Origin: Candidatus Zixiibacteriota bacterium
Lineage (GTDB): Bacteria; Zixibacteria; MSB-5A5; GN15; FEB-12
Length of the DNA: 64,000 nucleotides
NCBI GenBank assembly: GCA_024276275.1
Contig: JAJRXM010000039.1
Coordinates: 5,271 to 69,270, forward strand
Reading direction: 5' to 3'
Every line of letters starts with the position of its first letter. The first letter of the stretch is position 1. Below the pieces are notes generated by a model that was given only the letters and a program-made list of their open reading frames with translations, ran no database searches and was not told the origin of the DNA. Positions 11,740 to 51,814 of this stretch are shown piece after piece. The translations under genes and the position numbers were made by a program.

Positions 11740-14700
11740 TTGCTGTCAGGAAGACTGCTTGTAAAAATAGTAATTACGATATCATTTCTCTATGCGACAG
11801 CACAAATAGCTGTCGCAAGAGAAAATTTATATTACGGTAAAAAAGTCCAATCTGAAACGGTTAAGGGAGAGAACAAAGTCGTTCGACCTTGTTTAGCTCC
11901 ACGTACCGGCGGATTGATGGAAAAATATCTTGAGAGAGACAAACCGTGGTCGCTTCCCAAGCAGGCACTTGCTGCAGATTTTTTAGATACAGTTAAAGTT
12001 TTGGTTCTCAGATTTAATTTTCAAACTGAATCACCGGATGATCCAAATACAACCGGACTCGGTCGGATGAACCTGACACCCTTTGATGAAGCAGCCTTAC
12101 TGGAATCAGTCGGACATACCGTTGACCCGCCACCACATAATGCTGATTATTTTTCAGCACACCTGAGAGCTTTGGCAAATTATTATGAAGTAGTCTCAGA
12201 AGGAAAGATTACTCTTTCCTGGGATGTCTATCCTCCTCAATTAGACTCAGCCTATCAGTTACCTGAACAGATGAACTACTATGGCAAATGTGATTTTGCC
12301 GATGTTGTCGGCGGGCTTGAAAACTATTTTCGCGACGGTATCCGTGTTGCTGACACCACCACCCCCGAAATCAATTTTTCACAATACGAATCAATTTTTA
12401 TGTTTCATGCAGGCTCTGACAGGCAAAACGATATAGGTTTTCCGGAAACATGCAACGATTTGTTTACAGGTTTTATTAAATATGCCAATGAAGATACTGT
12501 TTTTGTCGATAACGGTTCAGTATTTATTACAAATGCATTAATGATGCCGGAGCAGGCTTCGCAAGATAACCGAGCAACAGCACTTAATGCTGTCTTAGCA
12601 CACGAGTTCGGACACCAACTCGGGTTAGTCGATTTATACAGTACTGCAACTTTTATTAGTCAACTTGGTGATTTTGCCTTGATGGATAACAACGGATTTG
12701 GTACTGGTATAGATTTTGGTTTTGTTGTCGGGCGTACATTCGGTGCAATTCCACTTTTCCCGACAGCATGGTCACGAGCTCATCTTGGATTTGTTGATGT
12801 AGTTGATTTTAGACAAGGTTCTGATATTCAACTGGTCGCAGCTGAAGTTGTTTCCTCGGGAATTAAAGTAGCCAGAATACCTATCTCTGATAAAGAGTAT
12901 TATCTTTTGGAAAATAGAAATGTAGAAGTAGACGGATACGTAACCGGAGTTCAGGCAGATTCATTAACAGGTGTATTTATGGGACCTGCGTATTGTATTG
13001 TTTGTGATACAAATCAAAACGGTAATATAACAGATATAACTTTATCACCGGAATATGATGCTCTTATGCCCGGGTCGGGACTACTTATTTATCATATTGA
13101 TGAAAGAGTTGCAGGGTTGGATTATAACTTTGACGGTGAATCAAACTTTGATGACAACCAACTGCAATGGGCTCGCGATTTAAACGGTACTTCGGTAGAC
13201 AGGTTTATAAGTTTAGTAGAAGGTGACGGTTTTGTGAATTTCGGAGGTTTCTATCGTTCGGGATTTGGACGTGCTGAAGATATGTACCGTGATGACCGCA
13301 ATACAGCATTTACACCTAATACAAATCCTCAAACAATTGACAATACCGGAAATAACACTCGCATAGCAATTGATAATATAACCCGAGTATTAGATACGAC
13401 ACTCATTAAACCTAAACTGATGGATTCGGTAATACAGTTTGATGTAACTACCGAAGATTTGGTCCAAGGTTTTCCGGTACGGGCAGGTGCACCACGTTTT
13501 CATATTTCACCTATCGCAGATGATTTAAACGGTGATGGAGTACCTGAGCTGATTTACGTCTCAGGTGATTTACTCTCGGTCGTTACAACAGACGGACAAG
13601 ACTTTTTAGAACAAATAGACCCTTGCGGTTGTCCTCCATATCAAGACTCATCGTTTGCATCTATTCATCCGGGTCGACTTAATACAATCCCACTCTTTAT
13701 AAAATTACCGGCCGATGCCTATACAATGCCTGTTACCGGAAGATTTTCCGATGATGCCGACCCGAACAAATTGGTTGCTATCGGCGAACAAGGACGTATA
13801 GATATCTTTCGTGTGGCAGATATAAATGATGACGGTCAGGCTGACCCAGCAAATTCTTTTTCAACCGGAATACTCGGCAACCCGATTGCATTAACATTTG
13901 GCGATACTTTGTTTGCACTTACCGATTCAGGGTATGTTCTACGAAAAACATTGTTAAATTCTGCCTATGATACTCTTATGCAATTTGCAAATGATGAGTA
14001 TCAAGGTATCTGTAGAGTTGATAACGTTCTTGCGGTTCTTGCCGGAGATTCAATTGAAACAATGGCTTATTTTGTCGATGGTAATATTATAGACTCTATT
14101 GCACTGGGAGAACATTATACTCTCGGACCGATTTATGTTGACTTGGATCTTGACGGCTCTAAAGAGCTGGTTGCTGCTACCCTAGACGGAAAAATAATTT
14201 TAGTCTCTATAAACTCTATACTTGAGACTAATAATATCTCAATAAAAGACCAAAAAGATTTAGGTTTTACTTTTATGGTAAACCCGATAGCATCCGATGT
14301 TGACTTAGACGGTTATCCCGATATTGTCATAGGTGGCACGAACTCTATATATGCTTTCAATTACGAACTTACTCTTAAAACATCGTTTCCAATCGAAATA
14401 AATAAAAAATTCCCGAACGACCATCCTATCAACGCTTTGATTGCAGCAGATATAGAAACAGGCGGAAAACCGGAACTCATTGTGCCGACAGAGATAGGGA
14501 ACCTTTATTCATTCGGTGATAAACTAACGCAAGATTTTCCGCTTTCAGGTGGAGAACAGGTAATTGGCTCTCCGGTTTTTCTAAATGATGATACCGGAGG
14601 AAAACTTGGGTATATAGGTGCCGACGGATGGTTTTATCTTTGGCATGTTGATACCGACTCTGTTACAAATTTCTGGCCGATGGCAGGGAATAATCCATCG

Positions 14701-15039
14701 GGAAATCTGAATTTTGAATCTACAAAGTTACCTTCTGCCAAAACATACGCTGACAATCTTCCGGAAAATTCTTTTTATAATTACCCAAATCCTGTTATAA
14801 ACGGTACAACAACGATACGATATTTCTTAGGTGAAAATGCGAGTTCGGTTGAATTGGCAATTTTTGATTTAAGTGGTCAGGAAATTGAACGGTTCAATGG
14901 TCCGACAACCGGGTTGGTCGATAATGAGGTTCTCTGGAATTGTTCCGATATTACATCGGGAATATATAGGTGTGTGATTTCGGTGGAGTTTCCTAGCGGA
15001 ACAGAAAGATCATTTACTGATATTTCGATTATAAAATAA
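11740..15039 (+). CDS. secreted M6 (immune inhibitor A-like) zinc metalloprotease with FG-GAP/VCBS-like repeats and a T9SS C-terminal sorting domain
   Basis: 1099 aa with a TTG start 6 nt after GGAGAG. It has the HEFGHQLGLVDLY zinc motif (HEFGH codons 12601-12615), repeated DLNGDG / DLDLDGSKE / DVDLDGYPD calcium-type repeats, and the C-terminus NYPNPVINGTTTIRYFL...LAIFDLSGQEI...GIYRCVI. Confidence 0.75.
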   Translation: MLSGRLLVKIVITISFLYATAQIAVARENLYYGKKVQSETVKGENKVVRPCLAPRTGGLMEKYLERDKPWSLPKQALAADFLDTVKVLVLRFNFQTESPDDPNTTGLGRMNLTPFDEAALLESVGHTVDPPPHNADYFSAHLRALANYYEVVSEGKITLSWDVYPPQLDSAYQLPEQMNYYGKCDFADVVGGLENYFRDGIRVADTTTPEINFSQYESIFMFHAGSDRQNDIGFPETCNDLFTGFIKYANEDTVFVDNGSVFITNALMMPEQASQDNRATALNAVLAHEFGHQLGLVDLYSTATFISQLGDFALMDNNGFGTGIDFGFVVGRTFGAIPLFPTAWSRAHLGFVDVVDFRQGSDIQLVAAEVVSSGIKVARIPISDKEYYLLENRNVEVDGYVTGVQADSLTGVFMGPAYCIVCDTNQNGNITDITLSPEYDALMPGSGLLIYHIDERVAGLDYNFDGESNFDDNQLQWARDLNGTSVDRFISLVEGDGFVNFGGFYRSGFGRAEDMYRDDRNTAFTPNTNPQTIDNTGNNTRIAIDNITRVLDTTLIKPKLMDSVIQFDVTTEDLVQGFPVRAGAPRFHISPIADDLNGDGVPELIYVSGDLLSVVTTDGQDFLEQIDPCGCPPYQDSSFASIHPGRLNTIPLFIKLPADAYTMPVTGRFSDDADPNKLVAIGEQGRIDIFRVADINDDGQADPANSFSTGILGNPIALTFGDTLFALTDSGYVLRKTLLNSAYDTLMQFANDEYQGICRVDNVLAVLAGDSIETMAYFVDGNIIDSIALGEHYTLGPIYVDLDLDGSKELVAATLDGKIILVSINSILETNNISIKDQKDLGFTFMVNPIASDVDLDGYPDIVIGGTNSIYAFNYELTLKTSFPIEINKKFPNDHPINALIAADIETGGKPELIVPTEIGNLYSFGDKLTQDFPLSGGEQVIGSPVFLNDDTGGKLGYIGADGWFYLWHVDTDSVTNFWPMAGNNPSGNLNFESTKLPSAKTYADNLPENSFYNYPNPVINGTTTIRYFLGENASSVELAIFDLSGQEIERFNGPTTGLVDNEVLWNCSDITSGIYRCVISVEFPSGTERSFTDISIIK

Positions 15040-15050: not shown

Positions 15051-15965
15051 ATGAAAAAATATATACTGAGTGCTTTACTTCTGATATGTCCCCTAACGGC
15101 AGATGCATCTGAGTTTTTACAACAATCAGAATTTGACGTAGCTCAATCAAAAATCAAGTACTCACTTTTAAACAGTGATATTGCAAGTCAAAAGTTTCAA
15201 GATTCTGAATCCGGTGAAATTACTTATAAAAACGGTAAATCCGATAGCAAAACTAATTCTTATAAATCTCCCGGGAAAGCGTTTGCTATGTCACTTTTAA
15301 TCCCCGGTATGGGACAGCTTTATGTCGGAGACTCCAAATTAAAATCTCTTGCATTTTTCGGTACAGAAGTAACAAGTTGGATACTTTTCTTTAAGTGGGG
15401 AAAAGATGCTGATGATTTAACTGCTGCGTATGAAAAGTTTAACAACGATCATTGGATAGAATCTCGTTATATTGATATGCTCCAATGGACTTATGGTTTG
15501 GAAAATGATGATAATACCAGTGGATTGTATCCTGAATTAAGTCACCATTTGCCTAAAACAAAAGTACAACAATACTATGAAATGACCGGTAAATATGACC
15601 AGTTTTCATGGGGATGGGATGATGCTATGCTGCTTTCAGATAGTACGGTTTATGGCGATTACAGTCTGAACAATCCATTTCCTGTTTTAAATAGCCAGGA
15701 AAATATCCCTTTTTCTGCCAGAAGAAATGCCTATGAAATTATGCGTGATGATGCCAACAATAAATACAGTCAGGCACGAAAAATGGTTTATGTTTCAATG
15801 ATAAATAGAATGTTTGCGGCATTTGAAGCATTGATTGCCGCCAAAAGAAATAATAGAAATAGTGACGGTGGTTCTATCTTATCATCGTTATCAGCCGAGG
15901 CATCGTTTAAAAGTTCCTATGTCAAACGTGACACGCCGTATATAACATTGAGCATGAAGTTTTAA
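15051..15965 (+). CDS. hypothetical envelope protein, DUF5683-like (paralog 1)
   Basis: 304 aa with a signal peptide. It carries the motif SLLIPGMGQLYVGDSKLKSL, a C-terminal helix INRMFAAFEALIAAKR, and ends in ...LSMKF (terminal Phe). Confidence 0.45.
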   Translation: MKKYILSALLLICPLTADASEFLQQSEFDVAQSKIKYSLLNSDIASQKFQDSESGEITYKNGKSDSKTNSYKSPGKAFAMSLLIPGMGQLYVGDSKLKSLAFFGTEVTSWILFFKWGKDADDLTAAYEKFNNDHWIESRYIDMLQWTYGLENDDNTSGLYPELSHHLPKTKVQQYYEMTGKYDQFSWGWDDAMLLSDSTVYGDYSLNNPFPVLNSQENIPFSARRNAYEIMRDDANNKYSQARKMVYVSMINRMFAAFEALIAAKRNNRNSDGGSILSSLSAEASFKSSYVKRDTPYITLSMKF

Positions 15966-15975: not shown

Positions 15976-16767
15976 ATGAGTAGACTATATAACATATCTG
16001 TTTTTATTATTATATCAGCACTAACTGTTCAAGTAAGTTATAGCATAGAACTAAGTCAGACACCAATACAAAATCAGTTAAAGAATTCAATTTTACTTGC
16101 TGCTGATAGTTGGAATCTTGACGGGAAAAAAGATGCTGATAATAATTATATTGTAACCTCTCAAGGTATAAAACAAAAAAAATCAGCATTCAAAGCAGCT
16201 CTTTATTCAGCTCTGCTTCCGGGTCTGGGTGAACACTATGTCGGCAATAGAACCAAAGCAAAAGTTTTCTTTACGACCGAGGCTCTTACGTGGATGAGTT
16301 ATATTGCTTTCCGGACCTATGGAGATTGGAAAAAAGATGATATGGTTCGTTATGCTGCCGGTAAAGCGGGAGCAACTTTAGACGGAAAAAATGATGAGTA
16401 TTTTGACTGGGTCGGGTTTTATAATTCGACTGAAGACTTTAATTCTCTTGGTCGGGTTTCTGACCCTTCAAGAGCTTATCTAACAGGTTCAGATAACTAT
16501 TGGCAATGGGAATCTGATAACGACCGTGAAAATTTTAGAAGTTTAAAAAACAGCAGCCGTACGGCATACAATAGAGCAGGATTTATGGTTGTGGCTGCTA
16601 TAGGAAATAGAATTATTTCAATTATCGATGCAATACGTGATGCCAAACGAGCTAATAGTCATGAAAAGATAGATATCTCAGAAAAAAAATCTTATAACTA
16701 TAAATTTGCGGTTGACCCTTTAAGTTATAACAGGCAATTCTCAATAACGGTCTATACACCGTTTTAA
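15976..16767 (+). CDS. hypothetical envelope protein, DUF5683-like (paralog 2)
   Basis: 263 aa. It carries the motif SALLPGLGEHYVGNRTKAKV, a C-terminal helix GNRIISIIDAIRDAKR, and ends in ...VYTPF. The architecture matches the upstream gene. Confidence 0.45.
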   Translation: MSRLYNISVFIIISALTVQVSYSIELSQTPIQNQLKNSILLAADSWNLDGKKDADNNYIVTSQGIKQKKSAFKAALYSALLPGLGEHYVGNRTKAKVFFTTEALTWMSYIAFRTYGDWKKDDMVRYAAGKAGATLDGKNDEYFDWVGFYNSTEDFNSLGRVSDPSRAYLTGSDNYWQWESDNDRENFRSLKNSSRTAYNRAGFMVVAAIGNRIISIIDAIRDAKRANSHEKIDISEKKSYNYKFAVDPLSYNRQFSITVYTPF

Positions 16768-17723
16768 TGGAAGCCAAGATGCGTATTCTTTTGATGCTGA
16801 TACTTTTGGTATCTATCAGCTGTTCTACAGTTGAAAAAAATGTCATACGTCAGGAAGTATCTCAATCTATAAAAGTTGATCTTGTTTTTGAAAAAGAAAT
16901 AAAAGGGGTTGTTTTTGGTCTCCCGTTGAGTAAGCCGTTTGGGCTTGCGGTTGATTTTAAGGGTGATGTTTATGTTGCCGATGCGGGGAATAACCGAATA
17001 CTGAAGTTTGATTCAACAATGAATCCGTTAAAACTGTTCGGTGGATTCGGTTCGGATCAGGGACTTTTTAATTTCCCGACATATATCAGTTTTGATAACG
17101 GTCTAAATCTGATGGTTTCCGATGAAAAAAATCAGCGTATAGCAAGATTTAATTCACAATTACAATACGTAGACCAAATTCTGTTTTCAGACATTGATGA
17201 CCCGCTAAAATTCGGATACCCCTCAGGAATTACATTTACAAATTATGGAGAAATTTGGGTTGCCGACAGAGATAACAACCAAATCGCAATTTTTAATAAT
17301 ATAGGCAAGTATTCACACTCACTCGGACAGTTTGGATATGCCGGGGGACAGTTGTCCTCACCTGAAAAAATAATCAGAGATATGAACGGTGATTTCTTGG
17401 TATGCGATGCCGGCAACAAACGAATTGTACGGTATGATGAATATGCAAATTATCTCAATGAGTTTTCGCTAGACTTGTTTGAATATCCGAGTGCGGTTGC
17501 TTTACAACAAGATAAACTATTAGTATTAGACTCTGACATCGGTTCTATTTTTATTTTCAAAAAAAGCGGTCAGTTTATAGGCGAAATAAGTTCAAAGTTA
17601 CTGGGTGATAAAACAAATTTGTTAAATCCGACTGATTTACTTTTTATCTCAAACGATAGAATAATAATATCTGATACCGGCAATGACAGGTTAGTTATCG
17701 GCAAGCTCATTATAGAAGAATAA
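16767..17723 (+). CDS. NHL-repeat beta-propeller lipoprotein
   Basis: 318 aa with a lipobox-like VSISC. It has five or six NHL-type repeats (VYVADAGNNRILKFD, MVSDEKNQRIARFN, IWVADRDNNQIAIFN, LVCDAGNKRIVRYD, IISDTGNDRLVI). The start overlaps the upstream stop (TAATG). Confidence 0.75.
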   Translation: MEAKMRILLMLILLVSISCSTVEKNVIRQEVSQSIKVDLVFEKEIKGVVFGLPLSKPFGLAVDFKGDVYVADAGNNRILKFDSTMNPLKLFGGFGSDQGLFNFPTYISFDNGLNLMVSDEKNQRIARFNSQLQYVDQILFSDIDDPLKFGYPSGITFTNYGEIWVADRDNNQIAIFNNIGKYSHSLGQFGYAGGQLSSPEKIIRDMNGDFLVCDAGNKRIVRYDEYANYLNEFSLDLFEYPSAVALQQDKLLVLDSDIGSIFIFKKSGQFIGEISSKLLGDKTNLLNPTDLLFISNDRIIISDTGNDRLVIGKLIIEE

Positions 17724-17733: not shown

Positions 17734-20700
17734 ATGCTTCGAATAATAAACGGTATACTTATTCTCTTTCTGCTTTCCTTTAGTACAGTTACTGCTCAAA
17801 CAAAACTTCTTTTTGTCGGTAACGAAATAAAAAAAAATATTTATATAAATGCACATTTTATTGTAAATAACTCCGATAGCTTAGTTTTAAATCAAACCGT
17901 CTTACAAAGGGATATTGACTACCGATTTAATCAAAAGTTTAAACGGTTTGAACTGCTTATTAAGCATGATTCCGAATTTGATAGTTTGACTGTGCAGTAT
18001 CGTCAGCTTCCTTCATGGCTTCAGCAGAGGTACGGAAAAGCATTACCCGAAGTTACTCCCCAAACAAAAACATCTACCATAATTTTTCCTTCAGGAAATT
18101 ATAAAAAGCATCGCACAGAATCTGATATGAAACTGAGCGGTTCTAAATCCTTTAGGCTTACATCCTCTCAAACAGGTAGCACAGGGTTTAACCAAACGCT
18201 TGATCTTAATTTGTCGGGACACCTGGCTAAAAATCTTACTTTACAAGGTACAATCTCAGACAGGGGATACAACCCGTCTTATGGAACTTCCAATAGTCGT
18301 CTTAATGAACTTGATAAAATAAATATTAAGATAGCATCACCAAATTTCTCGGCACAAATAGGTGATATAATAATAGAGAGCAACAAAAGTTTCCGTGTGA
18401 GAGAAAAGAAAATTTCAGGTATTAATCTATCGGTTCATAATAAAAATATGCAGATTGGAATGATAGCCGCTCGTCCAAAAGGTCGGTATAATTCAGTTTC
18501 ATTTTTTGGGCAGAATAACAAACAGGGACCTTACCAAATAAAATCGCAATCGGTACGACAAGCTATTATCCCGAGTTCCGAAACTGTTTGGCTTGACGGA
18601 ATTCAGTTAAAACGGGGAGCAAATGATGACTACACTCTTGATTATCCGAACGGGCAGATTACTTTTAATGTCAATAACTTAATAGATGTCAGAAGTCGTA
18701 TAGTCATCGACTACGAACCGCTGTCATCTGAGTATAAACAAGAATACTTACATGCGAGTTCCGGATTTAATTCTACCGACTCAGTCTACAAATTTTCTTT
18801 TAACTGGATTCGTGAGGGAGATGATAAAGATGAAAATCTTTCGCAGTCGTTTTCATCTGCCGATGAGCAGCTGCTTGCCAATACTTTAGGCGAGGAACTA
18901 ATTTTTAAATCAGGAATAATTTCAGACACACTTGGTTCCTATCAAATTCTATCTGATTCACTTCCCGATACAGTCTATCAATTTGTAGGTGAAAATGCTG
19001 GGCAATATGATGTTCGTTTTTCGTATATTGATTCGGGAAAGGGAGACTATGTATATAGAGGAGCAAACCGATACCAATATGTCGGATATGGAAAAGGTGA
19101 TTTTCTTCCTGTTATTTTGTTAAATACTCCTAAAAGAACAGATTATCTTGGGGGGGCTTTTGTACTTACTGACGATAAAATAGGTCAGTTGCAAACGGAA
19201 TGGAACCAAAGCAGAAAAATCAACAATCTGTTTGCGGTAGATAATAGTTCCGATAATAATAATTACTACCGATTTGCCTATACAAAATTATTTGGAACTT
19301 CAAAAAACAAAGTAAGTGCATTATATCGAAAAAAAGATTTTAAATACTCAGAAAGAAATCGAGTCAACCAAGCTGATTATACCTATCAATACTATCTCCC
19401 TATACAAAGTAAGTTTAATTCAGCCGAACAACTAACATCTGTCAATTCTGTTATCAATATCTTTAGCAGTTTTACAATTCAATCAGGATATAGCTTGTTG
19501 AACTATTCCAATCAGTTTCAATCAAAAAACAGTAAAGTCGCCTTAAAGTTTTCTCCATTAAAAAAACTAAAATTTTTAGGCGATGCCAATATCATTCGGG
19601 CAGATTTATTAAATACTTCCCAAAAACAACAGGGACGTTCTGATATTGTAAATATACAGGGTGATTATAATTTTTACAAAAACTATACCCTTACAAGTTC
19701 TTTTGCCAAAACAAAACGGTCCAACGACTACAGTTTATTAGTCGGAGGATTCTCACACGATGAATATACTATTCGTATCGCCGACAAAAATTCTGAAATT
19801 TTATATCAATATTATACAGAAGATACCCTTTCTCTTGTATGGGAAAAAAAGAAAAACAGAAAAAGGATTCAATTCAAGTCGGAAAATAAAATTAAAAAAC
19901 TTAACTATACACTGCATGTCCGTTACCAAGAGCTTGATAATCTGACGAACAAACAAACATCACTGCTTACTTTGGCAAATTTTATCTATACTAACAGAAA
20001 ACAAAATTTACAAATACAGACATCATATACACTTTCCGATGAAACACGGTTTAGCAAAGGAATACGCTACTTAGAGGTAAACAACGGCGAGGGAGACTAT
20101 ATTTTTTCAGACAGTCAATATATACCTGAAGTCGGCGGGAATTATATACTTGTAGAGGAACTACTCTCTGAAACCGCACCGGTAAAACGAGGTGAAAAAT
20201 CATTCTCGCTCTCTAAAAGATGGGACAAAGTGTATGTGACCTTTAATTCGTTCATAAGTGAAGAATTGTTTGCTTCGGAATCCCGCAGTCGTAAATGGAT
20301 TTTTCCGGTTTTCTCCGATTCAAAATTGTCTTATCTTTTCTTCAACCGATTTTTAAAAGGCTCGCTTAAAGCATTTCCGATAAGCGGGGGATATTTTTTC
20401 ACTTTGAATTTTTCAGAAAAAAAAGAGAAACGATTTATCAACCAGCAAGACCGTTTAAAAGAGTCGTTAAAAAGTGAATTTATTTTTAATCAAAAAATAG
20501 AAAATATATTTATTGAAGAAAGACTGGAACTGTTTCAGGACGAACGTGATGCGTACTATTTTAGAGAAGGTGATATTAACGGACTAGCTTTAGTCGGAAA
20601 AGTAAAACAGGTAACTGATAAAAATGAATATGGAGTGCAGGTTAAATATAGAAGAGCTGTTTCAGCTGATTCTAAAATATCACAGATTTATATGTTTCTT

Positions 20701-20964
20701 TTGGAAAACAGATTTAAAATACAAAAACATGGTGAGCTAAAAGTAAGTTCAGAATTTTATCGTTCAAACAAAAATGATATCGTATCTTCACAAAGTTATC
20801 TCTTAACAGACAATCGCCCCGGAAGGCAGGGAGTTATATGGTCGCTGATTTTTCGGGCAAAATTAAAAAATGAATTCAGATTAAATTTTACTCTACAGGG
20901 CAGACACTCTGATATAAATGAGGCACGCATTTTTGCAAGGACTGAGTTTATTGCTCAATTTTAA
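17734..20964 (+). CDS. large outer-membrane protein with a SprA-like N-terminal region (short SprA paralog candidate)
   Basis: 1076 aa. The signal peptide ends TVTA/Q and the C-terminal residue is Phe (EFIAQF). Segments align by eye to the SprA encoded at 45698-51814: GINLSVHNKNMQIGMIAARPKG versus GLKTEAQVGNLRLTAIASQEKG, and IIPSSETVWLDGIQLKRGANDDYTLDYPNGQITF...RIVIDYEP versus IIEGSERITVNGEILKKGIDYDIQYDFGQVTL...QIKVDFEYAP. Confidence 0.5.
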   Translation: MLRIINGILILFLLSFSTVTAQTKLLFVGNEIKKNIYINAHFIVNNSDSLVLNQTVLQRDIDYRFNQKFKRFELLIKHDSEFDSLTVQYRQLPSWLQQRYGKALPEVTPQTKTSTIIFPSGNYKKHRTESDMKLSGSKSFRLTSSQTGSTGFNQTLDLNLSGHLAKNLTLQGTISDRGYNPSYGTSNSRLNELDKINIKIASPNFSAQIGDIIIESNKSFRVREKKISGINLSVHNKNMQIGMIAARPKGRYNSVSFFGQNNKQGPYQIKSQSVRQAIIPSSETVWLDGIQLKRGANDDYTLDYPNGQITFNVNNLIDVRSRIVIDYEPLSSEYKQEYLHASSGFNSTDSVYKFSFNWIREGDDKDENLSQSFSSADEQLLANTLGEELIFKSGIISDTLGSYQILSDSLPDTVYQFVGENAGQYDVRFSYIDSGKGDYVYRGANRYQYVGYGKGDFLPVILLNTPKRTDYLGGAFVLTDDKIGQLQTEWNQSRKINNLFAVDNSSDNNNYYRFAYTKLFGTSKNKVSALYRKKDFKYSERNRVNQADYTYQYYLPIQSKFNSAEQLTSVNSVINIFSSFTIQSGYSLLNYSNQFQSKNSKVALKFSPLKKLKFLGDANIIRADLLNTSQKQQGRSDIVNIQGDYNFYKNYTLTSSFAKTKRSNDYSLLVGGFSHDEYTIRIADKNSEILYQYYTEDTLSLVWEKKKNRKRIQFKSENKIKKLNYTLHVRYQELDNLTNKQTSLLTLANFIYTNRKQNLQIQTSYTLSDETRFSKGIRYLEVNNGEGDYIFSDSQYIPEVGGNYILVEELLSETAPVKRGEKSFSLSKRWDKVYVTFNSFISEELFASESRSRKWIFPVFSDSKLSYLFFNRFLKGSLKAFPISGGYFFTLNFSEKKEKRFINQQDRLKESLKSEFIFNQKIENIFIEERLELFQDERDAYYFREGDINGLALVGKVKQVTDKNEYGVQVKYRRAVSADSKISQIYMFLLENRFKIQKHGELKVSSEFYRSNKNDIVSSQSYLLTDNRPGRQGVIWSLIFRAKLKNEFRLNFTLQGRHSDINEARIFARTEFIAQF

Positions 20965-20965
20965 T

Positions 20966-22579
20966 ATGAAAAAAATAATATTCTACATAAGCTGTCTTAT
21001 AATTTTCACCGAATACTCAAGTGGCACAGTATTGCAATTTATAGATACAACAGATATTGCTATTCAGAATAAAATTGAGCAAAACAAATCATTACATAAT
21101 GCAGATTCACTCTATACATATTTTATCGACAACGGTTATCTTGATGTTTCAATAACCAATTTAAATGACACTCTGTTAATATCATCAGGGTCTCAATATT
21201 TTCTTAGAAATATCTATTTAAATTCTCTAATAATTACAAAAAATACAACGCCTGAAAAATTCACAAAAGAAACTGTAACAACCGAGATAGAAAAAACAAT
21301 TCAAAATGTAAACAAAGACGGGTATCAATTTGCAACTGTTGTTGTTGAGTCTACAGTTGTACATGATAAGATGGTTGACTTGTTCTGTTCTTTAAACAAA
21401 GGACCTCAAGTTGTTTTGGATTCTTTGATTTTTGAAGGACTCACAAAAACGCAAAAGCCGATACTGCATAAATATATTACCCTTGATGATTCACTCATCA
21501 CACCGAAACTTTTACGCACAATTGAAAAAGATGTGCGGGAAATACCGTTTGTGCAATTTGTTCCACCGATAAAACAAGAGTTACTGCAAGGTTATCAATC
21601 TGCCAATCTTATCATTCCGTTAAAAGAACGAAAAAATATCTTGTTTGAGGGTGGGGGAGGATATCTTTCCGATCAGGATCTATTTCTGTGGAATATTTCA
21701 TTACAATTTCAAAATATGTTTGGAGCAGGACGAGAAATATCTGTTCTTTCACAAAAGAAAGATATCAATCACCAAAATTTAACACTCGAATACAAACAAC
21801 CTCTTTTTGTATTAGGCATAGGTTCGGCAGGTTTTAAAATTCAGACAAGAGACTATCGTGACCAATTTTATGAATTTGTCATAAACTCTCAATTTCAAAC
21901 TTCCTATAAGAAGAAATTCAATTTTGGTACTTCGGCACAATACAAAACTGTAGAGCAGGAGAATAACCTCTCGTATCGTTCAGCTGAATTATCACTTTCG
22001 GTGAGCAATGATAAACTAAACTTAAAGGTAAAAAATAGAACCGATAAATTGATCTATGACTGGAAACTCAGTTATGGAAATAGAAAATATAAAAATGATA
22101 CTAACCTGACTATATCTTCACACAGTTCTTTTAATGAATCTCGTTTTGAAATAAAAACTCAGTTTTTAACTCCGATTAAAAACAGTTTGATGTTTTTTAT
22201 CAGTAGTAATCTACAAAGTTACCTTACAAATGAAAACATACCGCCACTTGCCGAGTTATACTTAATCGGCGGGACAGGTTCTATACGTGGATTCAAAGAT
22301 GAACAGTTTCCGTCAATACGTAATCTTATTGTAACGGTTGAACCTCAATACCAATTTGAAACCGGCAATCTGTTTATCTTCTACGACGGTGGATATATAT
22401 ATAATAGAACAGCTTCAGTAATTTCTGATTTTGATGAAACGACAATTTATCGTTATGGATATGGGATAGGTCTTTCGTTTCTAAATAATTCTCAATTTCT
22501 AAAAATTTCATTTGGTTGGAATAAAGAGGTCTCTTTTGATAATCCCAGAATTTCTTTACTTTTAAAAACCGGATTATAA
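20966..22579 (+). CDS. Omp85/BamA-family outer-membrane protein
   Basis: The ATG at 20966 (MKKIIFYISCLIIF signal) lies 1 nt after the upstream stop. The track ORF start at 20918 overlaps the upstream gene and is less likely. It carries the family motif LYLIGGTGSIRGFKDEQF and has beta-strand-rich, Y/F/N/S-rich composition. Confidence 0.7.
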   Translation: MKKIIFYISCLIIFTEYSSGTVLQFIDTTDIAIQNKIEQNKSLHNADSLYTYFIDNGYLDVSITNLNDTLLISSGSQYFLRNIYLNSLIITKNTTPEKFTKETVTTEIEKTIQNVNKDGYQFATVVVESTVVHDKMVDLFCSLNKGPQVVLDSLIFEGLTKTQKPILHKYITLDDSLITPKLLRTIEKDVREIPFVQFVPPIKQELLQGYQSANLIIPLKERKNILFEGGGGYLSDQDLFLWNISLQFQNMFGAGREISVLSQKKDINHQNLTLEYKQPLFVLGIGSAGFKIQTRDYRDQFYEFVINSQFQTSYKKKFNFGTSAQYKTVEQENNLSYRSAELSLSVSNDKLNLKVKNRTDKLIYDWKLSYGNRKYKNDTNLTISSHSSFNESRFEIKTQFLTPIKNSLMFFISSNLQSYLTNENIPPLAELYLIGGTGSIRGFKDEQFPSIRNLIVTVEPQYQFETGNLFIFYDGGYIYNRTASVISDFDETTIYRYGYGIGLSFLNNSQFLKISFGWNKEVSFDNPRISLLLKTGL

Positions 22580-22616: not shown

Positions 22617-23462
22617 ATGCAAAAGATACTACCGTATATCATTATAATTCGTCCGTTAAATTGTCTCTTAGCGGCAGCAACAGTATGGGTGGGAGCATTG
22701 ATGACTTGGCTGGAGCCGCAATTTTTAGCCCCGTTTCTGACATCACTTGCTACTTTTCTTGTTTGTGCTTCGGGGAATATAGTAAATGATATTGTTGATA
22801 TACCAATTGACCGTATAAACAGACCGCAGAGAATTCTTGTTCAGCAAAAAATACCTTTACAATCAGCCTATATTTTTTCGGTTTTGTTAAATCTTTCCGC
22901 ACTTGCTTTGGCAATCTTTGTAAGCCTTGATGTCTTTATTGCTGCTTTAATCGCAATCAGTTTACTTTATTTCTATAACTATAAAGCCAAACAAATCCCA
23001 TTTTTAGGAAATATAATTATCGCTTTGTTGGCCGGTATGGTATTTATAACCGGAGGGTTATCAATTGACAGATTGCTTGCATTTACATTGCCCGGACCTC
23101 TGATTGGGGCTGTTTTTGCTTTCCTGTTTCATTTAGTGAGAGAGATTGTCAAAGATATCGAGGATATAGACGGCGATTTGCAGTCCGGTATCAAAACTAT
23201 TCCAATTATCTTTGGGAAAAAGGTCTCAATAGCAATTGCTATGTCTCTTTTTTTGATTTTGACCTTATTTACCTATCTACCGATTCTCAAAGGCTGGTAT
23301 ACGGAAATTTATAAAATCCTGACTGTTTATATTGTAGATTTGCCTTTGCTGGCTTTTCTTATATTGTTATGGGGAAACCCGACGAAAAAAATGCTCGCAG
23401 CGACCTCATTATTGTTGAAAATCGGGATGGGAATAGGGATTATCGCCCTTATTTTTTCATAA
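22617..23462 (+). CDS. UbiA-family prenyltransferase, digeranylgeranylglyceryl-phosphate (DGGGP) synthase-like
   Basis: 281 aa and polytopic. The first Asp-rich motif is NDIVDIPIDRINRPQR and the second is KDIEDIDGDLQSGIKTIPIIFG. Both resemble the archaeal DGGGPS-type signatures within the UbiA superfamily. Confidence 0.65.
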   Translation: MQKILPYIIIIRPLNCLLAAATVWVGALMTWLEPQFLAPFLTSLATFLVCASGNIVNDIVDIPIDRINRPQRILVQQKIPLQSAYIFSVLLNLSALALAIFVSLDVFIAALIAISLLYFYNYKAKQIPFLGNIIIALLAGMVFITGGLSIDRLLAFTLPGPLIGAVFAFLFHLVREIVKDIEDIDGDLQSGIKTIPIIFGKKVSIAIAMSLFLILTLFTYLPILKGWYTEIYKILTVYIVDLPLLAFLILLWGNPTKKMLAATSLLLKIGMGIGIIALIFS

Positions 23463-25451: not shown

Positions 25452-25460
25452 ATAGAAGAT

Positions 25461-28437: not shown

Positions 28438-28448
28438 GGGGACTAAAG

Positions 28449-30283: not shown

Positions 30284-30287
30284 AACA

Positions 30288-45697: not shown

Positions 45698-48600
45698 GTG
45701 AAAACTATATCTAAAGTATTATTACAATTTACACTCGCCTGCATAGCAGTACTTTCTACTGCTGTGTTTTCTTTTGCAGAAATCGGGTTTCATGCTAAAC
45801 TTGATACTCCTCCGTTATTTATTACTCATTACGAGGAAGTAGAAGATAAAATCTCTGTAGCTATATATCCCAAAACATATCCAATTCTTTCAAGATGGTT
45901 AAAATATAAACCTCGCCCAAAAGAATCTAATTTTGCCGAAAATTCTATCCGGTTTGAGACAGAGTATTTTAATATTAAAAGAGATAAATATTTTCTTATA
46001 CCTCTTTCAGTAGATGCTGAAAAATATTCGCAATATCGTATCAGAAAATCTCTTCAAAAAAAACTACGTGAAAATTTTAGTCGGTCGATTAGTAAAGACC
46101 CTACGAAGAAAAAAGGCTCAGGTTTAGGAGTACAGGTTGCTCTGCCTAAAAGATTAGAAAAGATTTTTGGTGAAGGCTCGGCCGGACTTAAAATTTCGGG
46201 TAGAAGAAGAATTTCTTTTGCCGGAAGATCAAACTGGTCCGATGAGGCGACATCCGGTATCAATCAAAGTAAATTTCCGGCACTTGTAATGGACCAGGTT
46301 TCACAGTTTAACATTACAGGTACTATCGGTTCAAAAATTACGGTAAAAGTTTCTCAAGATTCGCAAACTGATATTCCACTTGCCAATAGAATTCAGATTC
46401 GGTACAGAGGGGACGAGGATGATATCTTAAAAGCTATTGAAGCGGGCAATACAACACTTTCTCTTCCTAACACAAAGTTCGTCGGATATTCATCTCGTAT
46501 CAGAGGTTTATTTGGCTTAAAAACCGAAGCACAAGTAGGTAATTTGCGACTTACAGCTATTGCTTCACAAGAAAAAGGTTCGTCAGAAACAACATCTATT
46601 ACTGCCGGTGGTGAAGAAAGCGTAGAGTACATTCGGGATTACGAATATGTCGAACGAAGAATTTTTGATTTAGTTCTGCCTTTCGATAGCTTAAAACCGA
46701 CCGAAAGAGTAACAGTTCTTGATATGTACGAATCGGTTCCAAGTTATAATTCTATTGAAGATCAAATTGTTGCAAATTTTTACGTTGATCCGGACAGTAC
46801 CGCAAGGTTCGCTTCTGAAGCAGTCAAGGGTAACGATACTAAAATTAAAGCAATTCCAAGTACAAAATATAGATTTTATCACGACAGTAAACGAAACGTT
46901 CCCTATGTTGTTTTTAATTCACCTCAGTCAAGAAACAATCATATCGGTTATTACATGGAAGTCGAAGATGAAAACGGTGCGGTGCGAACATTTGGTGATT
47001 TAGGAGATACTCTAGAGACACCTATAGATTCGGTTATGGTAATAGATTCTATTACAAATGATACAACCTATGATGTTACTTATAAATATTCTCTTCTCTA
47101 TAAGTTAAAACTTTTAATTCGTGCTGAACCACTTCCGGCTCCTACTGATCAGACTTGGAAGCTTATGTGGCGGAATTGTTATAATGTTCCTAAGGGAGCT
47201 CTTATTGAAGATATAAAGTTTAAAGTTCTAAAAGGACTAGAGGGTAATGAAAAAAGTACTAACTCTGTACCTTATCAAATAGAAGGTTCAAAGAATATAG
47301 ATTATCTTGAGATTCTTGGACTGGATTTAAAGAATACAAATACCGGAAAAGATACTCCCGATGGAATTGTCGATGATGACCCACTTATATATAGATCCGA
47401 CTGGGGTTTGGTTATTTTCCCTAGCAGAACACCGTTCAACGATACTATAACATATCAGTATGGCAATACAGAATTACCGGGATTAGATAAGAAGGTTCCT
47501 GAACTGTATAACTATACTTCGTGGACTGAAAAAACAGAAAGAAGTGAGTATTTTATTCAAAAAGTAACCACAACTCGTGGTTCTATTATTCGCCTTAACC
47601 GAGCGAATATTATAGAAGGCTCAGAACGGATTACAGTTAACGGTGAAATCTTGAAAAAAGGGATTGACTATGACATTCAGTACGATTTTGGACAAGTAAC
47701 ACTTCGGTCTGAAAAAGCAACAGACCCAAATGCTCAAATTAAAGTCGATTTTGAATACGCACCGTTTTTTGCGGTACAAAAAAAATCTCTCCTGGGACTT
47801 CGTGCGGAATATGAGTGGAGTAAAGATTTAAAATTCGGTTCTACATTTTTATATAAATCTGATAAAGCACAAGAGAGAAAACCGAAAGTTGGACAGGAAA
47901 CAGCTCGTACGGTAATTTTTGATGCTGATTTATCGCTTAAATTATATCCTGAATTTTTAACTTCTATGGTAGATGCTTTACCGTTTATTGAAACAGAATC
48001 TAAATCAAACTTGACTATTTCAGCAGAAATAGCTCAGTCTCATCCAAATCCGAATGTTAATGAAGTAGCCTATGTTGATGACTTTGCAACAGCTCTAGAC
48101 AATATCTCACTAGGTACTTTTAGAACAGTTTGGAAACAAACTTCACTTCCGGCACAACTTGATGCAAGCGAATATGTACAGGCAAAAATGCTGTGGCATA
48201 GACCTATAAACCAAACACCAATTACTGATATTTATAACAGAGATACTCAAGCCGGAAGTGGGACTATGCGTACTTTCCGGATGATTTTCAGACCGCAAAA
48301 TCAGGTGGTTGATACCGCTGTTGCTGAAGACTCATCATTAACTATTACCACTACCCCGACTAAATCCTGGGGGGGGATTATGAGGTATTTTGGCTCTCCG
48401 TTACAAGAAAACAGAGTAAAATTATTTGAAGTGCGGATGAGAGCAACGAGTGGTAAAATTCATTTTGACTTTGGTGCTATCAATGAAGATTTAAACAATA
48501 ATGATAATGCTGATACCGAGGATCGTGATAATAGTAATGATATTGATATAGAAGGTACCGAAGATACAGGGTTAGACGGGTTGATGGACAAGGATGAAGT

Positions 48601-51600
48601 ACCTGAAGGTGAGTATGACCCGTCCGTTAATCCTGATCCAAACGGAGATAACTGGTACTCGTTTTTTGATGGGAAAGGGAAATGCCCTCTACCGGAAGGA
48701 TGTGATGCTATAGACGCAGATGATTATAATAATCCTCGATATTATGATTTTTTAAACGGTACTGAAGGAAACATCTCCGACGGGGGATCGTCACGACTTC
48801 CTGATAAAGAAAAGTACTCTCCGGGATTTACTACGAATAATGCCTATTTCTCGTATGTTCTTGATTTAGATAATTACCCTGACAGCTTTCTTGTAAAAGA
48901 TTCAAAAAGATATCCTGAAAATGATTTGAATCAGCTCCCGTGGGTTACCTATCGAATTCCGATTAAAGACCCTGATGCAATAGACCAAATTATTACATCT
49001 GAAGGGGGTATTCAACCTGAATGGAATAAAATAACTCATGTTCGTATATGGATGGAAGGTGACGAACTCAGTACAAAATGGGATACAGTTGAAGTTGCCG
49101 ATTGGTATTTTGTTCAGCCGAACTGGAGAGATTCCGTTATTTTCTCACCTCTTTCAGATATGAAGTCTGATTTTGTTATAGCATCTATCGGTGATGATAT
49201 AGATACGAATTTTTATCCTCCTCCTAGTGTGGAAGCATACAAAGACCCGACTACAAACGTAATAGAAGTTCAAAAAGCTTTGCAACTGACTTTTGAAAAT
49301 TTAAATCAACAGGATACTTGTATTGCTACTAAGAACCTTCTTTCGATTGACCAGTATTCAGGCTATAGAAGAATTGAGATGTTTGTACATGGCGATGAAA
49401 ATATTGTCACAAATACGGATATTGATAAAATTAGATTTTTCTTTAGACTCGGGCGTGATGATAAAAATTATTATGAATATTTTACAAATATTAAACCCGG
49501 TTGGGATCAGTCAAACCATGTTAATATTGATTTTAACGAACTGACAGCTTTAAAAGATTCAGCATTAAAAGTTCTTAAAAAAGGGGAGGTGCTGAATGTC
49601 GAAAATGATAAATATAGAATAACAGGTAACCCGAATATAAACGAAATTAAATTTTTGGCTGTAGGCGTGCTAAATGAAGATACCGTTAATTCTATTAGCG
49701 GGAATATATGGATTGATGAGTTACGGGTAACCGATGTACGAAAAGATGTCGGTACAGCCGGTCGTATTTCTGCGAATGGAAATATGGCGGATCTTATCAG
49801 CTATAATTTCTCTTTGCAGTCTAAAGATCCGTTCTTTAGAGGACTCTCATCAGCAACCCGTGGTGGTTCACAAAATAATTTAGGCTCCGGTAGACATGAA
49901 ACTACTATGAGTTCAAGTATGACTTTTAATTTACATAAACTACTTCCTCAGTCTTGGAGTGCATCGATACCGGTTACTTTGAGTTATAATAAGTCAGTAC
50001 AAACTCCATTGTTAAGAAACAATTCTGATATAATACTTGCTGAAGAAACTCGTATTGAGGAACAACGGGTAAGCGAATCTAAATCCTTTTCGATCTCCGC
50101 TAAATTTAAAAAGAAAACAAAAAACCCACTTTTCTCTGTTTTATTAAACCGATTGAATTCAAGAATGTCGTATAGACAAACAAATTTAAAATCAGTTAAT
50201 TTTTCTTATAACTACGGAGAAGTTCTTGATTTAAAAGCGGATTATAATTTGAATATAAAAAAGATACCGAAAATTCCTATTTTCTTCTTTTTAAAGTCAA
50301 TTCCTATTCTGAAAAAAGCATCCGATTCTAAACTTTCTTTATATCCGGATTCTTGGACTATGAACGGGAGTTTTAACCGAAGTATTTCTATTCGTGATGC
50401 TGTTAATTCTACGAGACGTACAGATTTAAAGAGAAATTTCACCGGATCAATGAAAATTAGTTTTAAATTCTTTAATAAATTGGTGTCTAGCTATAGCTAT
50501 AACACTCGAAGAGATTTGACTAATCTAGAACTAATTAATTTTAAATTTAACAGAAAAGATTTTAAACTTGGGCTGGAAACATATTACGGGCAAAAGTTTA
50601 CTGCCTCTTATGACCCGCAGTTGCTAAAATTCTTTACCACCAGCTTTTCATATAAATCATCGTACTCCGATGATCTAGAACGTACGAATCTAACCAGACG
50701 TTCAGCACTATCAAGAAATATGTCCGTTGGAGGTACTTTCGATCACCAGGCTCTACTAGGTGGAAAAAGCACTTCTTCATCAGGTCGAAGTTTTAAAGGA
50801 CGACGTGGTGGGCGAAAAAAGAATGTTATTGAAGAAGAGAATAAAAAGAAAAAGAAATTTTATGAACCGGTTCTAACAGGGGTAAGAAAACTAACCGGAT
50901 GGATTAGCCCTTTCAAGTATTCTTACAATACCAACTTTACTAATTCTTTGCCGGGACTGGTAAAAAGACCTAACTATAGATATCTCTTTGGTTTTACAGA
51001 CGATGCAAATGTAGAGACATTGGAAGATACTAGAATTCAAAAATCCGGAAATGGGGAATCGTATGATATTTCTTCCGGTTTTACTTTCCTTGGCGGTCTT
51101 GTTACAACTGTTAAATTCCGTAGGTCAATTTCGCGTGATTTGGTAAAACAGGGTAAACGGTTTGAAAATATATCAGAGAATTGGCCGGATTTAGGTATCC
51201 GTATTACTAAATTCAGAAATTTACCTTTAATTCAGTCTTATGTAAATAAATTTATTGATATATTTTCTCCTCGCACAGGTTTTTCAAGGTCGGTAAAGGA
51301 ATCAAGAGATAGAGACGGTAATTTCACGGTTACAAAATCCACAAGTACAGGGTTTAATCCGTTACTGCAAATAAATTTTAAACTGTTCCGCTCACTTTCT
51401 TTAACGAGTTCTGTAACTCGCTCTATTACCGAAAGCGAAACTCATTCACCGGTTGATGGAGTATTGCAGTCAACATCTACAACGAGTAAACAGACATTTG
51501 CTTTGACAACTAAGTATTCGTTTACATCCCAAAACGGTATCTCAATTCCTATCTTTGGAAGATTGAAATTTAGGTCTACCGTAGATTTATCGATGAATGT

Positions 51601-51814
51601 GAAATTTAATTCTTCTAAAACTGAAAACCATGTTGTAATTGGAAATCTTAATAATGTTACAAACGATGAATCATCTATATCTTTTAATCCGGTGATTGCC
51701 TATACTTTCAGCCGTCAGATAAAAGGAGGTATCACTATGAGATGGCAGGATGTAAAAGGGCGAAGAAATAATCACACTCGTGAAGTTCAACTTTGGACAG
51801 AAATTAGTTTCTAG
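45698..51814 (+). CDS. sprA: T9SS translocon protein SprA (Sov)
   Basis: 2038 aa with a GTG start and a signal peptide. It has the typical SprA N-terminal segments (GLKISGRRRISFAGRSNW, IEAGNTTLSLPNTKF) and beta-barrel-type composition throughout. The terminal residue is Phe (LWTEISF). Confidence 0.8.
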   Translation: MKTISKVLLQFTLACIAVLSTAVFSFAEIGFHAKLDTPPLFITHYEEVEDKISVAIYPKTYPILSRWLKYKPRPKESNFAENSIRFETEYFNIKRDKYFLIPLSVDAEKYSQYRIRKSLQKKLRENFSRSISKDPTKKKGSGLGVQVALPKRLEKIFGEGSAGLKISGRRRISFAGRSNWSDEATSGINQSKFPALVMDQVSQFNITGTIGSKITVKVSQDSQTDIPLANRIQIRYRGDEDDILKAIEAGNTTLSLPNTKFVGYSSRIRGLFGLKTEAQVGNLRLTAIASQEKGSSETTSITAGGEESVEYIRDYEYVERRIFDLVLPFDSLKPTERVTVLDMYESVPSYNSIEDQIVANFYVDPDSTARFASEAVKGNDTKIKAIPSTKYRFYHDSKRNVPYVVFNSPQSRNNHIGYYMEVEDENGAVRTFGDLGDTLETPIDSVMVIDSITNDTTYDVTYKYSLLYKLKLLIRAEPLPAPTDQTWKLMWRNCYNVPKGALIEDIKFKVLKGLEGNEKSTNSVPYQIEGSKNIDYLEILGLDLKNTNTGKDTPDGIVDDDPLIYRSDWGLVIFPSRTPFNDTITYQYGNTELPGLDKKVPELYNYTSWTEKTERSEYFIQKVTTTRGSIIRLNRANIIEGSERITVNGEILKKGIDYDIQYDFGQVTLRSEKATDPNAQIKVDFEYAPFFAVQKKSLLGLRAEYEWSKDLKFGSTFLYKSDKAQERKPKVGQETARTVIFDADLSLKLYPEFLTSMVDALPFIETESKSNLTISAEIAQSHPNPNVNEVAYVDDFATALDNISLGTFRTVWKQTSLPAQLDASEYVQAKMLWHRPINQTPITDIYNRDTQAGSGTMRTFRMIFRPQNQVVDTAVAEDSSLTITTTPTKSWGGIMRYFGSPLQENRVKLFEVRMRATSGKIHFDFGAINEDLNNNDNADTEDRDNSNDIDIEGTEDTGLDGLMDKDEVPEGEYDPSVNPDPNGDNWYSFFDGKGKCPLPEGCDAIDADDYNNPRYYDFLNGTEGNISDGGSSRLPDKEKYSPGFTTNNAYFSYVLDLDNYPDSFLVKDSKRYPENDLNQLPWVTYRIPIKDPDAIDQIITSEGGIQPEWNKITHVRIWMEGDELSTKWDTVEVADWYFVQPNWRDSVIFSPLSDMKSDFVIASIGDDIDTNFYPPPSVEAYKDPTTNVIEVQKALQLTFENLNQQDTCIATKNLLSIDQYSGYRRIEMFVHGDENIVTNTDIDKIRFFFRLGRDDKNYYEYFTNIKPGWDQSNHVNIDFNELTALKDSALKVLKKGEVLNVENDKYRITGNPNINEIKFLAVGVLNEDTVNSISGNIWIDELRVTDVRKDVGTAGRISANGNMADLISYNFSLQSKDPFFRGLSSATRGGSQNNLGSGRHETTMSSSMTFNLHKLLPQSWSASIPVTLSYNKSVQTPLLRNNSDIILAEETRIEEQRVSESKSFSISAKFKKKTKNPLFSVLLNRLNSRMSYRQTNLKSVNFSYNYGEVLDLKADYNLNIKKIPKIPIFFFLKSIPILKKASDSKLSLYPDSWTMNGSFNRSISIRDAVNSTRRTDLKRNFTGSMKISFKFFNKLVSSYSYNTRRDLTNLELINFKFNRKDFKLGLETYYGQKFTASYDPQLLKFFTTSFSYKSSYSDDLERTNLTRRSALSRNMSVGGTFDHQALLGGKSTSSSGRSFKGRRGGRKKNVIEEENKKKKKFYEPVLTGVRKLTGWISPFKYSYNTNFTNSLPGLVKRPNYRYLFGFTDDANVETLEDTRIQKSGNGESYDISSGFTFLGGLVTTVKFRRSISRDLVKQGKRFENISENWPDLGIRITKFRNLPLIQSYVNKFIDIFSPRTGFSRSVKESRDRDGNFTVTKSTSTGFNPLLQINFKLFRSLSLTSSVTRSITESETHSPVDGVLQSTSTTSKQTFALTTKYSFTSQNGISIPIFGRLKFRSTVDLSMNVKFNSSKTENHVVIGNLNNVTNDESSISFNPVIAYTFSRQIKGGITMRWQDVKGRRNNHTREVQLWTEISF

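Follow-up and report, generated by a model that had tools for sequence, protein, structure and literature searches.

SprA, the translocon of the secretion system known as type IX (T9SS), is a barrel of 36 strands and, to our knowledge, it is the largest single-chain membrane barrel cited so far and the only one of its kind. In the literature on giant barrels and SprA-like proteins, the only other report found was a 2021 prediction by Solan et al. (PMC8346858), which presents a superfamily, as yet without a name, whose barrels are predicted to have 38 and 40 strands (families 002 and 003). The present analysis concerns a stretch of 64,000 nucleotides (nt) from Candidatus Zixiibacteriota bacterium (contig JAJRXM010000039.1, positions 5,271 to 69,270), the whole of which is referred to here as the window, and centers on a gene located 25 kb from the canonical SprA gene of this window, which in turn lies between murB and an M28 peptidase gene. 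The open reading frame (ORF) is real and encodes a protein of 1076 amino acids (aa), which an original prediction, made from the sequence, had taken for a SprA-like paralog with a barrel of roughly half the usual size. The best explanation overall, which is considered probable, is that the protein belongs to a family of giant, bare barrels of approximately 38 strands, N-terminally homologous to SprA, which would form a wide channel gated together with partners.

This barrel family resembles families 002 and 003 of Solan et al. in that the latter are predicted single barrels larger than SprA, which rank among the largest families in that work, as the present family is also very large, and the 39 strand segments counted here fall between 38 and 40. 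On the other hand, the main text of that paper, which presents no accessions, taxa or sequences, contains no link to SprA and no gene context, and the identity of the two is a guess.

Predicted fold of the giant barrel

The protein begins with a typical signal peptide (aa 1-22; MLRIINGILILFLLSFSTVTAQ) and ends in ...FIAQF, with a terminal Phe that is near-invariant across the family. As had been noticed originally, the two proteins share both of these features, given that the SprA of the window also has a signal peptide and ends in Phe (...TEISF). Together with the all-beta meander found between its termini, the signal peptide and the C-terminal aromatic residue are the features by which bacterial outer-membrane beta-barrels are recognized.

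When modeled by AlphaFold2 with an alignment of 70 homologs, the protein has a predicted local distance difference test score (pLDDT) of 85.8 and a predicted template modeling score (pTM) of 0.74, with DSSP assigning 39 long strands between aa 131 and aa 1075, connected mostly by 2-5 residues. The series is interrupted only after strand 8, by the second copy of a small beta domain, after strand 10, by a third domain, and at a surface hairpin (aa 787-802). The ortholog from Nonlabens (Flavobacteriia), which is only 18% identical and was modeled from a separate alignment (pLDDT 75.3, pTM 0.55), presents the same 39 long strands in the same arrangement. As a barrel with both ends facing the periplasm needs an even number of strands, the count is read as 38 or 40, which points to a predicted barrel of about 38 strands, as wide as or wider than the 36-strand SprA. 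The proposal of a half-size barrel is not borne out by these models, in which the protein is half the length of SprA because it is devoid of the large inter-strand inserts of the latter, rather than because it has fewer strands.

The first copy of the small beta domain is followed by a linker of about 30 residues (aa 98-128), which is of low confidence or disordered in the AlphaFold2 model. The third domain contains many family-invariant residues (F429, G437, Y439, and P459), and outside the family it resembles only SH3, weakly (E 0.2). Overall, 20 of the 26 invariant residues of the family are found within aa 162-498, that is, in the part shared with SprA and the third domain.

Among the first strands, the motif NSRLNELDKI (aa 187-196, window 18292-18321) is near-invariant in the family (L190, E192, and D194), and its version in the Flavobacteriia is TQQLxEFDQV. 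The motif lies in a loop with a pLDDT below 50 in both AlphaFold2 models, and near-invariance combined with low model confidence is what would be expected where a partner binds, so that NSRLNELDKI is a candidate partner-binding site.

Relationship to SprA

The original prediction rested on three blocks of similarity to the SprA of the window, and both their positions and their order were confirmed: block 1 (barrel aa 131-144 vs SprA aa 164-178), block 2 (aa 229-250 vs 273-294) and block 3 (aa 278-330 vs 638-688). The blocks were compared by hhalign, using profiles of 70 barrel homologs and 37 Zixibacteria SprAs, and they did not turn out to be equally firm.

Block 3 is already found by pairwise BLASTP (E 2e-4; barrel aa 275-328 vs SprA aa 635-686), and in the profile comparison it reaches a probability of 96.7-96.8%, with E-values of 3-4e-10 and a score of about 102, the alignment extending beyond the small beta domain into the next beta hairpin, up to barrel aa 364 and SprA aa 723. 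The small domain is present twice in the barrel protein (copy 1 vs copy 2: 98%, E 1.2e-13), and the first copy (aa 31-95) also matches SprA aa 626-691 (92.7-93%, E 3-4e-7). Judged from these profiles, block 3 is truly homologous to SprA.

Blocks 1 and 2 did not reach significance by pairwise BLASTP against the SprA of the window, and share a single hhalign alignment of 125-128 columns (barrel aa 125-259 vs SprA aa 154-303), which is colinear with block 3. The E-value of this alignment is 0.017 when only the Zixibacteria SprAs are used and 0.009 with fast full-length alignments, and reaches 3.1e-5 (score 57, 72.9%) with an accurate alignment of Zixibacteria and Flavobacterium SprAs, the latter taken from genomes, which covers only the N-terminal 1000-1100 residues. 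In four runs of reversed-profile controls, the top scores were 17-25, against 35-57 for this match, and the same regions were recovered, weakly, by a profile of Flavobacterium SprAs alone. Blocks 1 and 2 are thus probably homologous to SprA, although not robustly so.

The three profile matches, two of them colinear, all score above the reversed-profile controls, and the resemblance between the two proteins is not a coincidence of composition. The relationship is nonetheless a distant one, which, at the level of the sequence, is limited to the N-terminal quarter, comprising the first strands, the small domain and the next hairpin.

The claim that the protein is a member of the SprA family did not hold. 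The protein matches neither TIGR04189 (cut-off of 200 bits) nor PF14349 (SprA_N), and in the Pfam scan PF14349 was absent from the window protein and from 42 of its relatives. Fifteen of these 42 relatives match TIGR04189 singly (best E 2.4e-7) and, where the positions were listed, only at model positions ~574-687. By comparison, the SprA of the window matches TIGR04189 with 592 bits.

The small beta domain of block 3 is not specific to SprA either, as far as its profile matches indicate. The phage distal-tail model TIGR02217 is matched by 13 of the 42 family members, Pfam DUF2460 (PF09343) by six and a phage tail-tube model by four, and these matches fall on the small beta domain wherever their positions were listed, although those to DUF2460 and TIGR02217 are partial and sub-threshold and the window barrel protein itself matches neither PF09343 nor TIGR02217. 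The SprA of the window also has a weak match to the tail-tube model, at aa 624-688. The likeness to the phage distal-tail proteins lies in the small beta domain and its signature, G-S-E-x-V-x-x-D/N-G-x-x-L-x-R/K-G-x-D-Y-x-I-D/Q-Y, whereas in the barrel family the domain is inserted into a membrane barrel or appended to one, and nothing phage-like is found nearby.

Compared with SprA/Sov (TIGR04189, PF14349; PDB 6H3I and 8GL8), the family is alike in being, as predicted, a giant single-chain outer-membrane barrel of the same phyla, in the homologous small domain followed by a hairpin and the probably homologous first ~8 strands, arranged in the same order, and in having its conserved residues concentrated in the N-terminal part, while SprA is the top Foldseek match of both models. 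The family differs in its length (about 1,080-1,200 aa, with 1076 aa in the window, vs about 2,000-2,500 aa), its predicted number of strands (about 38, from 39 DSSP segments in two models, vs 36), its extra N-terminal copy of the small domain, and its gene pairing with an NHL-repeat protein and an Omp85 protein, which has not been reported for SprA. A segment of about 330 residues, which separates the two shared segments in SprA, has no counterpart in the barrel protein, and the loops are short throughout, so that neither a cap nor a lateral opening of the kind known from SprA is apparent.

Family, hosts and gene neighborhood

In a family profile search of 1.84 billion representative proteins, clustered at 50% identity, 5,691 clusters were found at E <= 1e-3 and 2,743 at E <= 1e-30, and the best 150 full-length proteins have lengths of about 1,075-1,230 aa. 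Neither Pfam nor NCBIfam has a model for this family, whether searched with the protein or with the family profile, and the names given to its homologs at the source are all hypothetical or generic barrel labels, except for one automatic "TonB-dependent receptor" and one "DUF2460 domain-containing". An identity as a TonB-dependent receptor was rejected, given the absence of plug and TonB-dependent barrel Pfam domains. LptD was also rejected, for the lack of any match to the OstA/LptD N-terminal or barrel domains in Pfam and NCBIfam, as was a TpsB substrate, for which no domain match was obtained.

Loci of the family were gathered with a sub-alignment of the Flavobacteriia and a degenerate DNA motif for FxGxxGxQGPY, which returned at least 120 genomic stretches, and all of the 119 that were scanned encode true members. 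Their hosts include Flavobacteriales, Weeksellaceae, Chitinophagales, Sphingobacteriales and metagenome-assembled genomes (MAGs) of Bacteroidales, as well as Ignavibacteria, Melioribacteraceae, Balneolaceae, one Chlorobiaceae MAG and one Gemmatimonadota MAG, while the homolog search added Zixibacteria, KSB1 and Calditrichaeota. The range of the family is therefore the FCB group (Fibrobacterota-Chlorobiota-Bacteroidota and related phyla). Two true members with Omp85 neighbors are found on contigs of MAGs labeled 'Patescibacteria group' and Gemmatimonadota (L198 and L207); the former is probably a binning error, and the latter may extend the range of the family.

SprA and the present family occur together in the same genomes. 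Flavobacterium sp. FlaQc-48 and LC2016-12 have both genes in their assemblies, and in at least 15 pairs the longest contigs of the two proteins are of the same size. Given this coexistence, and the size and distinctness of the family, the barrels are an old, separate family, which is neither a recent paralog of SprA nor a part of the SprA family.

The features of the window are collected in Table 1.

Table 1. Genes and protein segments discussed in the text, in window coordinates.
Feature	Position	Strand	Basis and remarks
PorU sortase	5047-8967	+	Pfam/NCBIfam; upstream gene of T9SS attachment type
PorV-family barrel with long N-terminal extension	8984-11713	+	PorV part at aa 645-907; NF033709, 234 bits
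M6-like/FG-GAP cargo protein	11740-15039	+	1099 aa; type A T9SS C-terminal sorting domain
Paralogous pair of secreted proteins	15051-15965, 15976-16767	+	304 and 263 aa; sub-threshold DUF5683 matches
NHL-repeat beta-propeller protein	16767..17723	+	Pfam NHL, E 2.5e-29; ends 10 nt before the barrel gene
Giant-barrel gene	17734..20964	+	1076 aa; signal peptide aa 1-22; C-terminal Phe; AlphaFold2 pLDDT 85.8, pTM 0.74
Small beta domain, copy 1 (barrel aa 31-95)	17824..18018	+	hhalign vs SprA aa 626-691
First ~8 strands (barrel aa 125-259), with blocks 1 and 2 and NSRLNELDKI	18106..18510	+	hhalign vs SprA aa 154-303
Small beta domain, copy 2, and next strand hairpin (barrel aa 278-364), block 3	18565..18825	+	BLASTP, hhalign
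Third inserted domain (barrel aa 375-462)	18856..19119	+	One helix and short strands; AlphaFold2 model, family alignment
C-terminal run of 29 long strands, mostly short turns (barrel aa 468-1076)	19135..20961	+	DSSP of the model
BamA-like Omp85 protein with POTRA domains	20966..22579	+	537 aa; IRGF motif; starts 2 nt after the barrel stop codon
UbiA-family prenyltransferase	22617..23462	+	Downstream of Omp85; also in L004, L166 and L231
SprA	45698..51814		2038 aa; TIGR04189, 592 bits, E 3.4e-177; ends ...TEISF
SprA aa 154-303, counterpart of blocks 1 and 2	46157..46606	+	hhalign; corresponds to aa 126-275 of F. johnsoniae SprA
SprA aa 626-723, small domain and hairpin, counterpart of block 3	47573..47866	+	hhalign; corresponds to about aa 697-800 of F. 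johnsoniae SprA

The order NHL, barrel and Omp85 is found in the window and in three other loci: a Zixibacteria chromosome (L004), a KSB1 locus (L005) and a more distant metagenomic lineage (L166), where the barrels are 26-38% identical and the neighbors are orthologous by BLASTP. In L004 (38% barrel identity) and L166 (27%), a longer stretch recurs, which runs from the PorV-like gene through the cargo gene with its C-terminal sorting domain, the DUF5683-like pair, NHL, the barrel and Omp85 to UbiA, and in L004 a PorU gene is also found upstream. By contrast, the KSB1 locus has the trio only, following ribosomal and translation genes, and neither PorU nor PorV. Across the randomly sampled loci, NHL and/or Omp85 neighbors were found in 12 of 119, none of which is a named Bacteroidota genome, and an NHL ortholog lies upstream of the barrel gene in nine. 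In the Ignavibacteria locus L002, the neighbors (405, 542 and 634 aa) have no similarity to the NHL or Omp85 partners by BLASTP. The co-occurrence with porU/porV-like genes, which the original prediction had raised, holds in three lineages (the window, L004 and L166) and does not extend to the Bacteroidota.

The two immediate partners recall known systems. The NHL protein is probably a lipoprotein (...LLVSISC), and a large barrel encoded beside a probable lipoprotein resembles LptD-LptE, a 26-strand barrel plugged by its lipoprotein, which serves here as a working analogy for sealing, although the barrel family has no OstA/LptD domains, its partner is an NHL propeller rather than an LptE fold, and it has about 12 more strands. 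Over its full length, the Omp85 protein shares 33% identity with its L004 counterpart, itself a Pfam Omp85 match, and its orthologs match BamA (TIGR03303) and the solved BamA/TamA structures. In being a short BamA-like protein of about the size of TamA, with POTRA domains and an IRGF motif, encoded 2 nt downstream, it resembles TamA/BamA with dedicated clients, whereas no TamB/AsmA-like gene is found near the barrel gene. A mechanical ORF call places the Omp85 start at 20918, with a 47 nt overlap with the barrel gene (window 20918-20968); the likelier start is the ATG at 20966, which opens a signal peptide (MKKIIFYISCLIIF...).

Other neighbors merit a brief description. The N-terminal extension of the PorV-family protein, of about 640 aa, matches LysM (aa 526-575) and a 'PorV2' model (aa 34-68), both weakly, and the proteins that occupy this position in L004 (874 aa) and L166 (858 aa) have a Pfam PorV match. 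The cargo protein matches the NCBIfam model 'T9SS-dependent M6-like inactivated metalloprotease' with 283 bits, which is below the cut-off of 600 bits. It also contains FG-GAP repeats and is a possible PorZ-like partner of its neighbors, PorU and PorV. The DUF5683-like pair is kept upstream of the NHL gene in L004, L166 and a locus of Ignavibacteriales (L208). After UbiA, the window carries an aerotolerance-type operon (MoxR, DUF58, BatA, BatB, TPR and BatD; 24462-32096), and most of this run (MoxR, DUF58, BatA, a second VWA protein and TPR) follows UbiA in L004. The selenocysteine genes selA and selB (52777-56042) lie just downstream of SprA and the M28 peptidase.

Competing explanations and proposed function

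A number of observations weigh against the reading of a single giant barrel, kin to SprA and linked to the T9SS, and they are considered here together with the explanations that they favor. The strands were counted on the DSSP strings of the models, so that the closure of a single barrel is inferred from predicted secondary structure, and an odd number such as 39 implies that one segment was miscounted or lies outside the barrel wall. A chain of two or more tandem barrels, for example of 10-14 N-terminal and 24-28 C-terminal strands, would accord with the large domains that break the series after strands 8 and 10, and multi-barrel chains do exist, according to Solan et al. (PMC8346858). It would also accord with a mean-field direct-coupling analysis aimed at the pairing of the first and last strands (335 sequences, reduced alphabet), which did not recover this contact, although it recovered the sequence-adjacent pairs for only about half of the strands. 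However, the strongest long-range coupling in that analysis links strand 10 to strand 11 over the third domain, as would fit a single unbroken sheet, the pTM of 0.74 refers to the whole chain, and in the Foldseek search of the PDB no 16-26-strand barrel had a target TM-score (template modeling score) above 0.32 with either model, where a true sub-barrel of this size should match well. This last result argues against a chain of smaller barrels, albeit without proving the point, and tandem barrels are very unlikely. Still harder to credit is a barrel of the SprA family in which the number of strands is roughly halved, to about 18, and the lumen is much narrower, which would account for the halved length (1076 vs 2038 aa) but not for 39 long strands in two independent models, or for some 945 residues of near-continuous strand-turn-strand, far beyond the need of 18 strands, or for the lack of a match to the SprA family models.

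The kinship with SprA itself may be questioned, as the barrel could be an unrelated one that shares with SprA only a promiscuous small beta domain, inserted independently into two giant barrels. The occurrence of this domain in phage tail proteins, whose models are matched by about as many relatives as TIGR04189 and, weakly, by the SprA of the window, suggests that it may be a mobile module, and keeps this alternative alive. For blocks 1 and 2, the E-value is not stable (from 0.017 to 3e-5, depending on the alignment used, and no better than 0.009 with two of the three sets), in the C-terminal ~700 residues, or about 70% of the barrel, hhalign detects no similarity to SprA (its scores there do not exceed 30, close to the control ceiling of 25), and the family profile had no match among the PDB sequences, SprA included. 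Foldseek cannot establish the kinship: SprA chains are the top matches for both models, with the highest query TM-scores (0.21-0.28), but their E-values are barely better than those of BtuB or SusC, and a search of viral structures gave nothing informative. On the other hand, the best match continues for about 35 residues beyond the domain into the next barrel hairpin, the preceding strands pick a colinear segment of SprA out of about 2,000 columns, with scores well above those of the controls, and the domain occupies the same position in the strand order of both proteins, so that sharing of a mobile module alone is rather unlikely. A stronger contender, to which we give somewhat less than an even chance, is that the protein is a general envelope component (for example a wide channel for diffusion or uptake, an exporter of lipids or polysaccharides, or a protein with a structural role) with no mechanistic link to the T9SS, the PorU/PorV neighborhood being incidental. 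In Nonlabens and other Bacteroidota, in some Ignavibacteria and in the loci L167 and L168, the barrel gene stands alone among housekeeping genes, such as those of fatty-acid metabolism, succinate dehydrogenase or glycogen, the partners are nearby in none of the named Bacteroidota loci, the KSB1 trio follows translation genes, and UbiA, a prenyltransferase, is a conserved neighbor. The T9SS link may thus be specific to certain lineages. In addition, 39 of the 41 ORFs of at least 150 aa in the window (GC content of 36%) are on the plus strand, so that adjacency says less about shared function here than it would where genes lie on both strands. Against the general-envelope explanation, the gene order from the PorV-like gene to UbiA is kept at barrel identities down to 27%, and the named hosts are all FCB or Gemmatimonadota, which is the range of the T9SS, except for the one probably mis-binned 'Patescibacteria group' MAG.

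Under the preferred reading of a giant, bare barrel with SprA-related first strands, the protein would be neither a truncated nor a half-size SprA. Three small domains would accompany its strands: copy 1 at the N-terminus on a flexible linker, copy 2 after strand 8 and the third domain after strand 10. Its first ~10 strands, together with the small domain, would be distant homologs of the matching part of SprA, and the two families most likely go back to one giant-barrel ancestor, to which the SprA lineage added inserts of about 1,000 residues in all.

As for its function, a wide channel with a gate is the best guess. With loops so reduced, a pore of this width presumably could not stay open in a living cell and would have to be kept shut, for which the likeliest gates would be the tethered N-terminal domain and/or the NHL propeller protein, with the two inserted domains as further candidates, in a manner analogous to that of LptE in LptD or the Plug protein on SprA. 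On the simplest reading, the BamA-like Omp85 protein encoded 2 nt downstream would be the dedicated insertase of the barrel, or its docking partner. The clustering with PorU, a PorV-like protein and a cargo with a C-terminal sorting domain in basal lineages suggests, from gene order, that the barrel may take part in the export, assembly or attachment of surface material beside SprA, rather than replacing it, an idea that is held loosely, given that this clustering is absent in the Bacteroidota. A bolder version, which is improbable as a whole, would see in the family a stripped-down sister or ancestral form of the type IX translocon, namely a further pore of about 38 strands, devoid of a cap, which essentially all FCB bacteria would possess, gated by the tethered domain and the NHL propeller, inserted by a dedicated BamA paralog, and exporting surface material that SprA does not handle, for example with the PorU/PorV-type attachment genes in Zixibacteria.

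If a second family of the width of SprA or wider does exist, it would be a simpler system in which to study the sealing of such pores and the way in which the insertion machinery copes with about 38 strands, and it would show how adding inserts to a plain giant barrel may have given rise to the type IX translocon. The conserved pairing of the barrel with a BamA-like protein is directly relevant to the matter of insertion. Finally, the family is encoded in Flavobacterium species of everyday laboratory use, and it represents an unexplored and probably important component of the cell envelope.

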